From IMG/VR virus record IMGVR_UViG_2713896798_000010, positions 1 to 55,663 of that record: DNA of 55,663 nt; one strand, written 5' to 3'. Shown in pieces: positions 44,601 to 50,600 of the stretch (positions within the stretch are counted from its first letter, which is position 1; each line of letters starts with the position of its first letter). The stretch comes from a virus (lineage: Duplodnaviria; Heunggongvirae; Uroviricota; Caudoviricetes). Position numbers: made by a program.

Positions 44601-47600
44601 TTTCCCTCGTTTTGAGGGATGTCCCTCATTTTAGGGGAACCTCCCTCGTTTTGAGGGATGCACCATTCTGAGATGTTTTTATTTGGTCCAAACATGCCGC
44701 CTTGCTGCTTGATAATATTCATTCTGACGAGTTCTAACTTGGCTTCATTGCACCGTTTGACAGGTAACTTTGTAATCTCGCTAAGTTGAGAATCGGTGAT
44801 TCTGTCCATTGGTTTATTCCACCCATAGGTTTTACGCAGAATGGCAAGCAGCACTTTAAACTGTCGCTTGGTCAGATCTGCGCCTGAATAAGCCTCAATC
44901 AGCATATTTGATAGTCTGGCGTAACCATCATCGAGATCTGCCACATTACGCTCCTGTTCGGCAAAGTTACCTCTGCCGAAGTTGAGTATTTTTGCTGTAT
45001 TTGTCATAATGACTCCTGTGGATTGATCCAGTAATTCCCTCAGAATTGCATATCAATTTGCTTAGAGTCCCCGGCGGCCACCGGGGATTTTTTCTTTGTG
45101 ATTTCATCAAGCGCATACTTAAAAGCCCTGCTAATCGGACTGATGTCTGATGCCATTCCGAAAGCACACAAGACCGAAGCAATAAATCTCCAGTCCGTTC
45201 TGCTTATCTTCGATTCATGACAGCCAATCATCTTTGCCAGACCGCGCTGGGTAAGCGTTGACAGGTTGATGAGTAAATCAGTTTCAGCGCGATCAATTTC
45301 TCGCTGTGATAGTTTGCTGTAACTTGTTTGTGACATTTGTTAATTTTCCTATATTGATATGGGGTTAAGCGGCAATCCCCAATGGGTTTGCCACTGATGT
45401 TTGCTCACCCTGTTAGAGGTGAACGACCAGCAATGTTAAAGAGCGGTGTTACTTATTCAGCCTGGTTCGGATGAGGAAACAGGTGCGGTAAGTCCGGGCG
45501 AATTTCGTAAGCCTTAACCTGACCATTGGTGGCATTAACGATAGCGAAAACTTTTTCAGGAGAAACTTTTCCGCCTCGCAACCATTTATGAACAGCGGGC
45601 TGTGATACGCCGCAATCAGCTGCAAGTCGTTTTTGACTGCCAACAATATTCAAGGCTCGCTGAATCACTAAATTCATGAGCATACCTCTACAGCAAATAA
45701 AGCATAACCAAAAATAACATGAGTTATACACCAGAGCAATAACAATTGTTGTTTTACTTTTGATAACCGTGGTTATAGATTACAGGTATGAAAACATTCG
45801 CAGAAAGACTAAATGCCGCCATGAGTTCAGCCGGGTTGTCACAAGCACAACTTGCAGACATGGTGGGGGTATCACAACCAGCCATACAAAAGATGTCATC
45901 TGGTAAAACAACCGGATCACGTAAAATGGTCGAATTAGCCAACGCGTTAAGAGTTCGCCCTGAATGGCTAAGCTCTGGTATAGGGTCAATGAGACCACAG
46001 AGCGCAGAAGAGCCATCTAATGCTCGGGAATCATCTTTAAAAGCTATCGCCTGGGATGATCATCAAAATGATAATGACGAATTTGTTGCGCTCCCCCTTC
46101 TAAATATTTCACTTTCAGCTGGCGGAGGAAGTTGTGCATTGGAGGAGTCCGCAGAATTCTCTCTAGTTTTTAGGCGCTATTACCTGAAAAAAATGGGAGT
46201 TCCAGAAAAAGCGGCAAAGTTGGTCAGGGTTGTTGGGCAAAGCATGGAGCCAACACTCCATGATGGTGATGTGGTGGGGGTAAACACGCAAGATACGAGC
46301 ATCAGGGATGGTAAAACATATGCAATTTGCCAAGCTGATTTGTTAAGGGTAAAAACGCTCATAGCCACGCCAACATCGGTAATTATCAGATCGATAAACC
46401 GCGAAGAGTATCCTGATGAAGTAATGAACAGAGAAGAATTCTACAAAAACGTAAGAATCATAGGGCGAGTGTTCTGGTCATCACATAGCTGGTAATCAGA
46501 CTCCAACTGAACTTTTGCTATAAGAACACTCACGAAGAACGGCCTTTTATTGTGCTCAATACCACCGATGGTAAACCATTCGCCAAGTAGCCAATTCATA
46601 AAATGCCATTTCTAAATCCCCCGGCTCCAGTGCCGGGTTTTATTTACTTAATTACACAGTCGCATATCCTGAAGTAACACATCTATAGCTAACTTCACAG
46701 CGAGATCATCCAATTCATCATGGTGAAGCACTCGGATCATTCCCGCAATAGCATCTGCTGAAATAGCTTCCCCAGTAGCAATAACCTCAAGCAACGCCCC
46801 CCCTAGAATTTCGACTACCCGCTGGTGCAACACACCAAATTCCCCTTCGATTAACATGCAATCACCCATAACAATCAGCCTTTCCCCCTTGAAAATATCA
46901 CGCGGATACCACAAAAAATAAAATATTTTTGTTATCAGTCATTTATAATGTTTTTCATAAAATGATAAATATAGTTATTGCACAACCAGATAACTTAGGT
47001 TATCTTCAATTCAACAGCAGGACGCTGGAAGCCAAACGGAACAGATTGGCCGGCTCTTTAACATTGATGGACTCTCAACCTAACCGTTGAGACCAAAATC
47101 TAAGTGGTTTTGGGGATGACGAGAATTTCAGTTGCAAGGCCGCGATCGAGAAGAAAAACACCTCGACGCGTCATACACCAAAGCCACTTAAAGGAGACCA
47201 TCATGGTAACCGTAATCTGGAAAGAATCCAAAGGTACGGCAAAAAGCCGCTATAAAGCTCGCAGGGAAGAACTTATTGCAGAGCGGCGCAGTAGTGAAAG
47301 ACTGACACGGAAGATTGCGCTAAAGATCTCTGGTTGCGTCAGAGCAGACAAAGCAGTATCACTCAGCAGCCTTCGCAACAAGAAGGCAGAAGAAGTCGAG
47401 CGAAAAAACAGAAGTACTTATTACAAGGATTCAAACCCATTAGGAAACAAAATACATGCAGTTCAAAAAATAAAATTGTACAGTAAACCACCGTATGGAC
47501 TTATTGAGTATGCTTATGGTGAAAAAGACTATTTATGTTAATCCTAATCGCGGACAAAACAGAAAAGTATCTGACAGAAGCCTTACATCTCGAGACAGAA

Positions 47601-50600
47601 GGAGGATAGCGAGATGGGAAAAGAGAATAGCATATGCATTAGAAAACGGTATAACACCTGGATTTAATGCTATAGATGACGGTCCGGAATATAAGATTAA
47701 TGAAGACCCAATGAACAAAGTTGACAAAGCATTAGCAACACCATTTCCTCGAGATGTTGAAAAAATTAAAGATGAAAAATATGAGGATATAATGCACAGA
47801 GTTGTTAACCACGCACACCAACGAAATCCAAATAAAAAATGGTCATAACCCACTTCGATAGATTTTATTGTTTGGACTAACAAAAATTACTACCGCAAGC
47901 CACGCAGTGAAACGGGTGTGACTTGTGTTGGTCGCCAGAAAATGAAATTAGGCAGCAAACCACTTATTTGAGGTGAGATATGACAAAATCATGGAGCGTA
48001 CCTTTTCCTGAATCAGAAACTGAACATGATGGAATGCCTGTTTTCTGGAGATTCCAGGCGACAGTTGAAGAAGATGGGATAAAAATATTCGCACTTCAAT
48101 ATATAGCTTTTCATCAGACAGAGCATTATGCATGGTTGGTTCCTGCGCATTGGATTGTTAATTTTAAACCAGCACCAAATCAGTGGTTACAGGAATGGAA
48201 ACAAAGGAGAAATAGATATGCAATTAAGAAAGTAGCAAAAAATGCAGAAAGATCTTTTGCATTCCCAACGAAGAAACTTGCCATTGAAAGTTTATTGCGC
48301 CGGAAGAAATACCATTTAATGAGAATCAAACAAGATTTGGCTGTTGTATCAACTCTTGTTGATGGTATGAAGAATATTGATACATCAACACCAGATATTG
48401 AATATAACTTTGGACACAACCAAGAAACAGAAAATTGGGTATTTTATTAGTACGAATAAGCACTGTGTATTCATTCCAACGAGTGAATACACGGAGCAAT
48501 GTCGCTCGTAACTAAACAGGAGCCGACTTGTTCTGATTATTGGAAATCTTCTTTGCCCTCCAGTGTGAGGGCAATTTTTTTGACGGAGGATATATGAAAT
48601 TACGTGTCTGGCATATCCCGCAAGTACCTATGAAGCCGTTCATTGTAGAAGTGGCAAGTGTTGAAGAGGGTGTTCGTCTGATGGACGCACTGGCTGATTA
48701 TGACGCCTTTCAGTATGACAACAACATCAAGCCTGATTACTGCAATGCTAACGGCCTTGAGATGTGGGATGAGAGCCTTACCGATGAAGATTTATCAGAG
48801 ATGGGGCTTACTGATCGCTGGGTGGATTGGTACAGCGAATGCCAATGTTACGACGACCCACGTAAATATCTCGAAAGCCTGAAAGAAGAAACATCAGCCG
48901 CCTAAGCGCGGCTTTACCGCATACCAATAACGCTTCACTCGAGGCGTTTTTCGTTATGTATAAATAAGGAGCACACCATGCAATATGCCATTGCAGGGTG
49001 GCCTGTTGCTGGCTGCCCTTCCGAATCTTTACTTGAACGAATTACCCGTAAATTACGTGACGGATGGAAACGCCTTATCGACATACTTAATCAGCCAGGA
49101 GTCCCGAAAAATGGATCAAACACTTATGGCTATCCAGACTAAATTCACTATCGCCACTTTTATTGGCGATGAAAAGATGTTTCGTGAAGCCGTCGACGCT
49201 TATAAAAAATGGATATTAATGCTGAAACTGAGATCAAGCAAAAGCATTCACTAACCCCATTTCCTGTTTTCCTAATCAGCCTGGCATTTCGCGGGCGATA
49301 TTTTCACAGCCATTTTCAGGAGTTCAGCCATGAACGCTTATTACATTCAGGATCGTCTTGAGGCTCAGAGCTGGGCGCGTCACTACCAGCAGATCGCCCG
49401 TGAAGAGAAAGAGGCAGAACTGGCAGACGACATGGAAAAAGGCCTGCCCCAGCACCTGTTTGAATCGCTATGCATCGATCATTTGCAACGCCACGGGGCC
49501 AGCAAAAAAGCCATTACCCGTGCGTTTGATGACGATGTTGAGTTTCAGGAGCGCATGGCAGAACACATCCGGTACATGGTTGAAACCATTGCTCACCATC
49601 AGGTTGATATTGATTCAGAGGTATAAAACGGATGAGTACAGCACTCGCAACGCTGGCTGGGAAGCTGGCTGAACGTGTCGGCATGGATTCTGTCGACCCA
49701 CAGGAACTGATCACCACTCTTCGCCAGACGGCATTTAAAGGCGATGCCAGCGATGCGCAGTTCATCGCATTGTTGATCGTCGCCAACCAGTACGGCCTTA
49801 ATCCGTGGACGAAAGAAATTTACGCCTTCCCTGACAAGCAGAACGGCATCGTTCCGGTGGTGGGCGTTGATGGCTGGTCCCGTATCATCAATGAAAACCA
49901 GCAGTTTGATGGCATGGACTTTGAGCAGGACAATGAATCCTGTACATGCCGGATTTACCGCAAGGACCGTAATCATCCGATCTGCGTTACCGAATGGATG
50001 GATGAATGCCGCCGCGAACCATTCAAAACCCGCGAAGGCAGAGAAATCACCGGGCCGTGGCAGTCGCATCCCAAACGGATGTTACGGCATAAAGCCATGA
50101 TTCAGTGTGCCCGTCTGGCCTTCGGATTTGCTGGTATCTATGACAATGATGAAGCCGAGCGCATTGTCGAAAATACTGCATACACTGCAGAACGTCAGCC
50201 AGAACGCGACATCACTCCGGTTAACGATGAAACCATGCAGGAGATTAACACTCTGCTGATCGCCCTGGATAAAACATGGGATGACGACTTATTGCCGCTC
50301 TGTTCCCAGATATTTCGCCGCGACATTCGCGCATCGTCAGAACTGACACAGGCCGAAGCAGTGAAAGCTCTTGGATTCCTGAAACAAAAAGCCTCTGAAC
50401 AGAAGGTGGCTGCATGACACCGGACATTATCCTGCAGCGTACCGGGATCGACGTGAGAGCTGTCGAACAGGGGGATGATGCGTGGCACAAATTACGGCTC
50501 GGCGTCATCACCGCTTCAGAAGTTCACAACGTGATAGCAAAGCCCCGCTCAGGAAAGAAGTGGCCTGACATGAAAATGTCCTACTTCCACACCCTGCTGG

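Follow-up and report, generated by a model that had tools for sequence, protein, structure and literature searches.

Probable replacement of the end of a phage-21-type N gene by a nun-linked tail in a lambdoid prophage of the Shiga toxin phage type

Introduction

The stretch of DNA analysed here is the virus record IMGVR_UViG_2713896798_000010 of IMG/VR (positions 1 to 55,663), and this whole stretch of 55,663 nucleotides (nt) is called the window. It includes the start of the pL operon in a lambdoid prophage of the Shiga toxin (Stx) phage type, where the gene for the antitermination protein N is followed by a second N 3' end. An earlier note, made from the sequence alone, had described an N gene with a degenerate C-terminus, an inserted open reading frame (ORF) of 117 codons and, downstream of it, a start-less segment encoding a canonical N C-terminus (the orphan), and had proposed an insertion or recombination joint of roughly 460 bp inside N. 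By reading and ORF listing of positions 46600-48600, the N gene, the intervening ORF and the start-less canonical 3' end were all located as described, and two alternative N 3' ends do stand in tandem.

The gene order at the start of the operon is nutL, N, nun, an N 3'-end relic, an accessory gene for 156 amino acids (aa) and a terminator. It is probable that the last third of N was replaced by a variant tail linked to nun, that the original 3' end was left behind as an untranslated scar, and that the locus is an ordinary lambdoid mosaic joint with an undamaged N. A segment of 1101 bp that covers the locus (47000-48100) was found with 100% identity in phage PA28, phage 06-3462, about 11 Stx1a(-converting) phages and at least 17 complete Escherichia coli genomes, indicating that the arrangement is real and not an artefact of assembly.

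Identification of nun

The intervening ORF (positions 47495-47848, 117 codons) is present as the earlier note had described, but its identity had been missed, and this identity changes the meaning of the locus. The ORF is predicted to encode Nun, the transcription-arrest factor of phage HK022. The start homologous to that of HK022 Nun is the ATG at 47516, which gives a protein of 110 aa, and two further in-frame ATG codons lie 5' of it at 47510 and 47495. The product matched chain N of PDB 6ALG over its full length (phmmer, 229 bits, E 9e-68; ~92% aa identity), and its arginine-rich motif (ARM) matched the lambda-boxB-binding peptide of PDB 1HJI at 24 of 26 positions. The C-terminal HAHQRNPNKKWS is identical to that of 6ALG chain N, and the arrest segment at residues 87-109 (...VVNHAHQRNPNKKWS, including K106, K107 and W108) differs from it by one V-to-I replacement in 23 residues. 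This C-terminal segment of Nun wedges into the polymerase cleft (PMC5386594). The PHROG 5632 profile ('Nun-like') matched the ORF with an E value of 3e-67; Pfam has no Nun family.

Scans for Nun recovered 77 loci in IMG/VR viral contigs and only four in genome contigs. Of 5426 complete E. coli genomes, 220 were nun-positive, including genomes with Stx1 and Stx2 prophages; the HK022 exclusion factor is thus found in ~4% of the complete genomes, beside an N gene that is predicted to work.

Other proteins encoded directly after an N gene likewise terminate in the arrest motif, (V)NHAHQRNPNKKW(S). A protein of 293 aa with this ending follows a lambda-like N in loci L082-L085 (1272-2153 in L082) and belongs to PHROG 12139, a family of unknown function. 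Nun-like proteins of 103 aa follow N in Proteus phages (loci with the arrest motif are L008, 2155-2776; L077, 1655-2276; and L079, 1541-2129). The arginine-rich motifs at the N-termini of N and the Nun-like protein resemble each other in L079, which would fit a Nun that is an N paralogue directed at the nut type of its own phage.

Type of N and its nut sites

The N gene of the window has AAGGAG before its ATG at 47203 and a stop codon at 47539-47541, and it encodes a protein of 112 aa that ends in ...EEVERKNRSTYYKDSNPLGNKIHAVQKIKLYSKPPYGLIEYAYGEKDYLC. The earlier note had matched it to the N of the H-19B/933W type, but the N of 933W, whose record describes it as similar to H19B N, gave a BLASTP E value of only 0.22, and this identity is ruled out. 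The prophage of strain H19 was considered as a proxy for H-19B; its nun-bearing prophage continues with Q and non-stx genes and is thus uninformative on H-19B. The phage 21 N shares 73% aa identity over 97 aa with the N of the window, and 21 of the 22 ARM residues (8-29) are those of the phage 21 N peptide in PDB 1NYB. The DNA of the 5' part of N shares 88% identity with phage 21, in a homology that begins at 47012, adjoining the position aligned to the annotated pL start (47013).

Both nut sites are also of the phage 21 type. The nutL boxB occurs once in the window, folds with a 7-bp stem and a 6-nt loop, and is identical to the annotated nutL boxB of phage 21, while the nutR boxB is one nt off its annotated counterpart. 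As the ARM and both nut sites agree, N is assigned to the phage 21 type. No lambda-type boxB was found anywhere in the window, consistent with a Nun that spares its own phage.

The assignment to phage 21 holds for codons 1 to ~67, which include the ARM, and the remaining codons form the variant tail. The canonical C-terminal polymerase-binding segment (...GxTCxGRQKIKxxSxPLI) is not in the translated N and is present only as the orphan. In its place, the translated N carries the variant KDSNPLGNKIHAVQKIKLYSKPPYG followed by 13 frameshifted residues.

Boundaries of the nun cassette

In a blastn comparison, phage 21 matched the window at 47012-47425 (88%) and at 47887-47982 (96%), with 461 bp between the two matches, and the proposed joint of roughly 460 bp is thus borne out as an insertion or replacement of ~460-480 bp relative to phage 21. 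HK75, an HK022-type phage with putL and without N, matched at 47391-47869 with 93% identity. As this match covers the tail (from 47391) and corresponds to the sequence 5' of nun in HK75 and HK022, the 'divergent tail' of N is the sequence found upstream of nun in HK022-type phages.

Alignment, which the earlier note had recommended, did map the breakpoint. In a five-way alignment, the left crossover lies right after GAGCG, at ~47402. In the clade of phage mEp235 the switch occurs slightly further upstream, which fits homologous crossovers inside N. Phage 21 has collinear flanks but no nun gene between them, and the G+C content of the variant tail (0.32) and of nun (0.36) is below that of the flanking N 5' part (0.46) and orphan (0.435). 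Relative to phage 21, the variant tail, nun and the terminator hairpin (~47403-47886) thus appear to behave as one AT-rich cassette.

The variant N tail

The earlier note had seen in the tail a weaker copy of the terminal motif that reads through into 11 extra codons. The resemblance is real, with QKIKLxSK(P) at the same distance after YY as in canonical tails. The DNA of the two tails matches at 24 of 28 positions, which was equalled in one of 5000 shuffles, and the protein match was equalled in 76 of 20000 shuffles. However, the 'LI' and the 11 codons are the by-product of a single-nucleotide deletion. All outgroups (the majority clade, L069, P0003 and HK022) finish in ...PYGAY-stop or ...PSGAF-stop, with the N stop 8 nt 5' of the nun ATG, and ...PYGAY-stop is the ancestral end. 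The clade that includes PA28, the Stx1a phages, L009-L013 and L073 has lost one nt at 47498/47499 (GG-ACTT, compared with GGTGCTT in the others), which turns GAY-stop into GLIEYAYGEKDYLC-stop, so that N gains 11 residues (112 aa vs 101 aa) and overlaps nun by 26 nt. The apparent terminal 'LI' of N is thus due to this clade-specific frameshift.

The variant tail, with the motif YYKDSNPLGNKIHAVQKIKLYSKxPYG..., was found directly 5' of nun in ~65 related loci and is joined there to three different types of N ARM. Most loci have the phage 21 type, and L069, L007 and L072 have a different ARM (MTVVITYLADDNARNRRRARR...). A third, unrelated ARM, followed by ...ERKQNRIYYKDSNPFGNKIHAVQKIKLYSKPPSGAF, was recovered by a protein search with the tail alone (P0003), and in the P0003 contigs N is followed after 8 nt by a nun gene of 70% identity. 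The same search recovered P0005 (L090, 446-712), an N rich in G+C, in which a lambda-like centre is combined with a hybrid tail, WYKDSNPFGNKIHAVQKSRGKSTPLI; nun is absent from the 150 bp that this contig extends downstream.

In the C-terminus of P0005, the nun-linked variant (WYKDSNPFGNKIHAVQK) passes in register into the canonical ending SRGKSTPLI, indicating recombination between the two types of tail at the QK motif.

Polymorphism was compared among the 38 loci with an intact N as well as a phage-21-type orphan. The variant tail showed six synonymous changes and one non-synonymous change (ratio of non-synonymous to synonymous polymorphism, pN/pS, 0.04), with 0/1/6 variable sites at the first, second and third codon positions. 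The values for nun were 20 synonymous and nine non-synonymous (pN/pS 0.11; 8/0/21), those for the N 5' part 22 and 22 (0.31; 13/11/22), and those for the orphan six and eight (0.40; 3/4/9).

If the tail were degenerate and N non-functional in a decaying prophage, the lack of the canonical GxTCxGRQK...PLI residues and the frameshifted end in the window clade would be explained. However, the tail is under strong purifying selection, and it is carried by the isolated, plaque-forming phages mEp235 and mEpX1, which were grown on K-12. Phage PA28, which is inducible, has an identical gene; its genome assembly was made from phage DNA obtained after ciprofloxacin induction of cultures (PMC4587872). 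The PHROG 271 N-like profile also runs through the tail, with N residues 2-100 aligned to profile positions 60-173 of 176; Pfam gave only a sub-threshold N_peptide match. A crippled N is thus extremely unlikely, and the description of the C-terminus as degenerate does not stand for a tail that is conserved and occurs with at least three ARM types. As the tail is both homologous to the canonical one and conserved, it appears to be not a loss but an allelic class of the N C-terminus, maintained by strong purifying selection.

An origin in situ would also place two N ends in tandem. A tandem duplication of the last ~30 N codons would have captured nun, after which the upstream copy diverged, with selection acting on N function and on a nun promoter, and the downstream copy stayed canonical. 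The N codons from about NRxYY to the stop do form a direct repeat flanking nun, and QKIKLxSKP is common to both copies and in register. However, the tail also occurs on the differently composed N of P0005, with no nun in the 150 bp downstream, and on three unrelated ARMs, and there are hints of older N genes with a KDSNPxGNKIHAV tail that fall outside all nun-linked loci in phylogeny. The G+C content of the tail is like that of nun and unlike that of N, and the copies have no detectable DNA similarity beyond 28 nt, whereas the orphan is 96% identical to phage 21. Duplication in situ is thus unlikely, and replacement of the N end by an imported tail is preferred.

The orphan N 3' end

The orphan (47885-47971) encodes NYYRKPRSETGVTCVGRQKMKLGSKPLI-stop and has no ATG, GTG or TTG start codon. 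It is 95.8% identical to the phage 21 N 3' end over 96 nt (blastn, E 5e-41). The earlier note had placed it 9 nt before the Shine-Dalgarno (SD) sequence of the next gene, but its TGA (47969-47971) actually overlaps the SD sequence GAGGTGAG and lies 8 nt before the ATG at 47980. As had been noted, the window has the orphan and the 117-codon ORF in one frame, and there is no stop between them. However, in the majority clade the two are offset by 2 nt and an in-frame TGA lies upstream of the orphan, and the frame match in the window is thus due to chance. A Nun-orphan fusion made by read-through, which would be in frame only in the window clade, was ruled out on the same grounds.

Presence and absence of the orphan were taken from a tblastn table; a census by regular expression under-counts orphans. 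The orphan is present in ~61 of 66 close nun loci and absent from HK022, HK75 and L071. In L088 and L089 it has collapsed to seven codons (YYSKPLI-stop plus the SD sequence) through the loss of 60 nt between two SKP-coding repeats. Absence from some relatives and collapse in others indicate that the orphan is dispensable. The existence of relatives with the same N tail and no orphan (L071 and HK022/HK75), which the earlier note would have taken as evidence against the joint, bears on the need for the orphan and does not make the joint unreal. Among the 38 loci, the orphan has 16 variable sites in 81 nt, about twice the per-site variability of nun or of the tail, and the changes include singleton replacements by C, H, D and L.

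A function for the orphan, either translated (by read-through of the nun stop or from an unusual start) or as a cis element for the downstream gene or transcript, would account for its retention in most loci, for its 96% identity to phage 21 and for the third codon positions making up nine of its 16 variable sites. The frame that it shares with nun in the window, with no intervening stop, and the overlap of its last ~15 nt with the SD sequence of the next gene point the same way. Against this stand the lack of a start codon, the frame offset and upstream TGA of the majority clade, the excess of non-synonymous over synonymous changes (eight vs six, including the singletons), the 60-nt deletion in L088/L089, the absence from HK022, HK75 and L071, and the finding that the stop/SD end alone is invariant. 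A functional orphan is thus very unlikely. The orphan is best regarded as a displaced phage-21-type N 3' end and a dispensable relic, as judged from its sequence.

In ~14 loci (among them L004/L050, which are mEpX1, and L016, L019, L022, L034 and L048; ~2375-2460) a different, lambda-like N 3' end (RQKQRGKSIP...) was found. The distal half of the orphan in these loci is ...CSGRQKQRGKSIPAYY... and runs on without the usual stop, indicating that the relic is itself mosaic.

A terminator-like hairpin on the minus strand within the orphan (47908-47892) was treated as a chance feature, there being no minus-strand gene at this position; it was probably inherited from the coding sequence of phage 21 N.

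The terminator after nun

In the majority clade, nun is followed by a hairpin, CCCAC-TTCG-GTGGG, with a run of six T residues (-10.3 kcal/mol). HK022 has CCCGC-TCAG-GCGGG (-11.8 kcal/mol) in its place, and the compensatory changes between the two argue for a real terminator. No hairpin forms after nun in the window clade (PA28 and the Stx1a phages), and it has also been destroyed, independently, in HK75. The Stx-phage clade of the window is thus marked by two lesions, the 1-nt deletion in the end of N and the destroyed terminator after nun, the latter shared with HK75 by independent loss.

Proposed origin and function

The source of the cassette may have been an ancestral pair of N (with the variant tail) and nun. 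Two crossovers would have brought the cassette in, one of them homologous and within N, the other out of register at the NRxYY codons, directly 3' of the nun terminator. Its joining would have pushed the last ~30 codons of the recipient N downstream, where they would stay untranslated as the orphan. The last codons of N and the SD sequence could serve as a common joint for swapping accessory genes with phages that have a canonical N, and recombination with such phages could keep refreshing the orphan. Repeated exchange with functional N genes here would be in keeping with both the third-position bias of the orphan and its 96% identity to phage 21, and selection need not have acted on the orphan.

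After induction, N would act at its own nut sites of the 21 type and antiterminate transcription from pL and pR. In the lysogen, Nun would arrest RNA polymerase on the lambda-type nut transcripts of superinfecting phages and spare its own phage. If the nun promoter is placed as in HK022, it would fall inside the N tail. In the window clade, the broken terminator may let nun transcripts reach the next terminator (48553-48582), which would add the 156-aa gene to the transcription unit.

Some points weigh against replacement by an imported N end as set out here. Firstly, the variation in the orphan is still biased to third codon positions (3/4/9), and some constraint is possible; the bias may be attributable to import from functional N genes. 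Secondly, the data would allow either course of events, the import of an N(variant)-nun pair or duplication in situ. Thirdly, a consensus scan of positions 47391-47515 found no near-consensus promoter, and expression of nun in the lysogen is presumed from HK022. A constitutive nun promoter reportedly lies just upstream of the coding sequence in HK022 (King, Madsen and Weisberg 2000, cited in PMC5386594), and Robert et al. (1987) and Oberto et al. (1989) are reported to have described the biology of HK022 Nun and lambda.

The strict linkage of the tail to nun, found across three unrelated N ARMs and in the HK022 remnant, may instead reflect functional co-adaptation. The stretch encoding the tail could also carry the nun promoter, or the N tail could be tuned to the resident Nun in overlapping space in the polymerase cleft. 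The synonymous variability of the tail is not below that of nun and so gives no independent sign of an overlapping promoter. Co-adaptation is considered improbable; if it holds, the orphan would be a built-in homology arm for shedding or regaining the nun cassette.

With replacement by an imported N end as the preferred explanation, a lambdoid phage would have taken up an exclusion gene within an essential regulator and still kept that regulator, as the cassette brings its own gene end. The old N end would remain as a scar and then serve as a recombination joint.

Comparison with known phages

The nun locus of HK022 (pL-putL-nun; PDB 6ALG, with the ARM-boxB complex in PDB 1HJI) resembles that of the window in a nun product of ~92% identity with the same C-terminal arrest motif, and ~125 bp 5' of nun and the stretch just 3' of it are homologous at 93% in HK022-type phages. 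However, HK022 lacks both a nut site and an N ARM, and has putL and a 38-codon N 3' remnant instead. An orphan is also missing there, and the terminator hairpin that follows nun is intact. The corresponding sequence 5' of nun in the window is translated, as the end of a complete N gene.

The remnant (EVVRKNRSIYCKDSNPLGNKIHAVQKIKLYSKLPYGAY-stop, ~38 codons) lies between putL and nun in HK022 (L053, ~1876-1990) and HK75 (L002, 1501-1617) and has no ARM or start. This suggests that put may have replaced a nut site and the 5' part of N in an ancestor with both N and nun. HK022, the textbook example of a lambdoid phage without N, thus still has the last 38 codons of an N gene.

Phage 21 (N/nut; PDB 1NYB) shares with the window the ARM, the nutL boxB (identical), the nutR boxB (apart from 1 nt), the centre of N and the 3' end that the window has as the orphan. 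However, the N of phage 21 is uninterrupted, has 99 aa and ends in ...YYSKPRSEMGVTCVGRQKIKLGSKPLI, and there is no nun. Phages mEp235 and mEpX1 have N with the variant tail, nun and an orphan in the same order as the window, with 90-91% DNA identity. Unlike in the window, their N has 101 aa and ends in ...PYGAY-stop without overlapping nun, and both phages keep an intact hairpin after nun. The orphan of mEpX1 has a different, lambda-like 3' end.

Extra genes (morons) and mosaic module boundaries in lambdoid phages are established concepts (Hendrix, Juhala and colleagues). Like a moron, the nun cassette is an AT-rich extra gene between conserved genes, with a terminator that is intact in most relatives and in HK022 but destroyed in the window clade, and with a promoter reported for HK022. 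As at lambdoid module boundaries, joints coincide with gene ends and downstream modules are swapped at a shared linker. However, the left end of the nun cassette lies inside a coding sequence, and the cassette supplies a replacement gene end, predicted to be functional, and leaves a gene-fragment scar.

The components of the locus are known, the GenBank records of mEp235 and mEpX1 already give N and Nun in this order but leave the orphan unannotated, and no new mechanism is indicated. In the open-access literature, no paper was found that describes the coexistence of N and nun, and no description was found of the orphan, the linkage of the allelic tail to nun, the N remnant of HK022 or the two clade-specific lesions. 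The present assignments correct the database annotation for N and nun.

In the RefSeq record of PA28 (L003, 2212-2349), only the C-terminal 45 aa of nun are called. In complete E. coli RefSeq genomes (H31-H60), N, nun and the 156-aa gene are all listed as 'hypothetical protein' or 'regulator'.

Features of the early left segment

The features of the segment are listed in Table 1.

Table 1. Coordinates of features at the start of the pL operon and of nutR in the window
Feature	Position	Strand	Description
nutL	47053-47092	+	boxA GCTCTTTAA at 47053-47061; boxB hairpin TCTCAACCTAACCGTTGAGA at 47073-47092; phage-21 type
nutR	45445-45404	-	boxA CGCTCTTTA, boxB TTCACCTCTAACAGGGTGAG; phage-21 type
N, phage-21-type part	47203-47402	+	ARM and central region, up to ...KKAEEVER
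N, variant ('alt') tail	47403-47541	+	KNRSTYYKDSNPLGNKIHAVQKIKLYSKPPYG, then clade-specific frameshifted end LIEYAYGEKDYLC-stop; final 26 nt overlap nun
nun	47516-47848	+	Predicted HK022-type Nun transcription-arrest/superinfection-exclusion factor, 110 aa
Terminator relic after nun	47849-47870	+	CCCACTTCGATAGA + TTTTATTG; 3' arm mutated, T-run shortened
Orphan	47879-47971	+	Probable displaced phage-21-type N 3' end, (NK)NYYRKPRSETGVTCVGRQKMKLGSKPLI-stop; predicted untranslated
SD GAGGTGAG and 156-aa ORF	47970-48450	+	Joined at the N stop codon; PHROG 1636
tL-like intrinsic terminator	48553-48582	+	Closes the early left segment; from a terminator scan

The invariant stretch at the joint is the end of the orphan, CCACTTATTTGAGGTGA..ATG (stop/SD), and at least five different genes are attached at the same ...CCACTTATTTGAGGTGA.. 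joint among relatives, namely the 156-aa ORF of the window (47980-48450) and at least four others. The PHROG family of the 156-aa ORF is of unknown function, and the ORF had no match in Pfam, NCBIfam or PADLOC. Positions 48460-48580 are 97-98% identical to phage 21 and HK75, both of which have annotated terminators there.

NCBIfam and PADLOC likewise gave zero matches for N, for Nun and for an 88-aa ORF on the minus strand (46648-46914). This 88-aa ORF belongs to PHROG 3946 (unknown function), is unannotated in PA28, and sits antisense between the terminator after cI (46620-46637) and pL.

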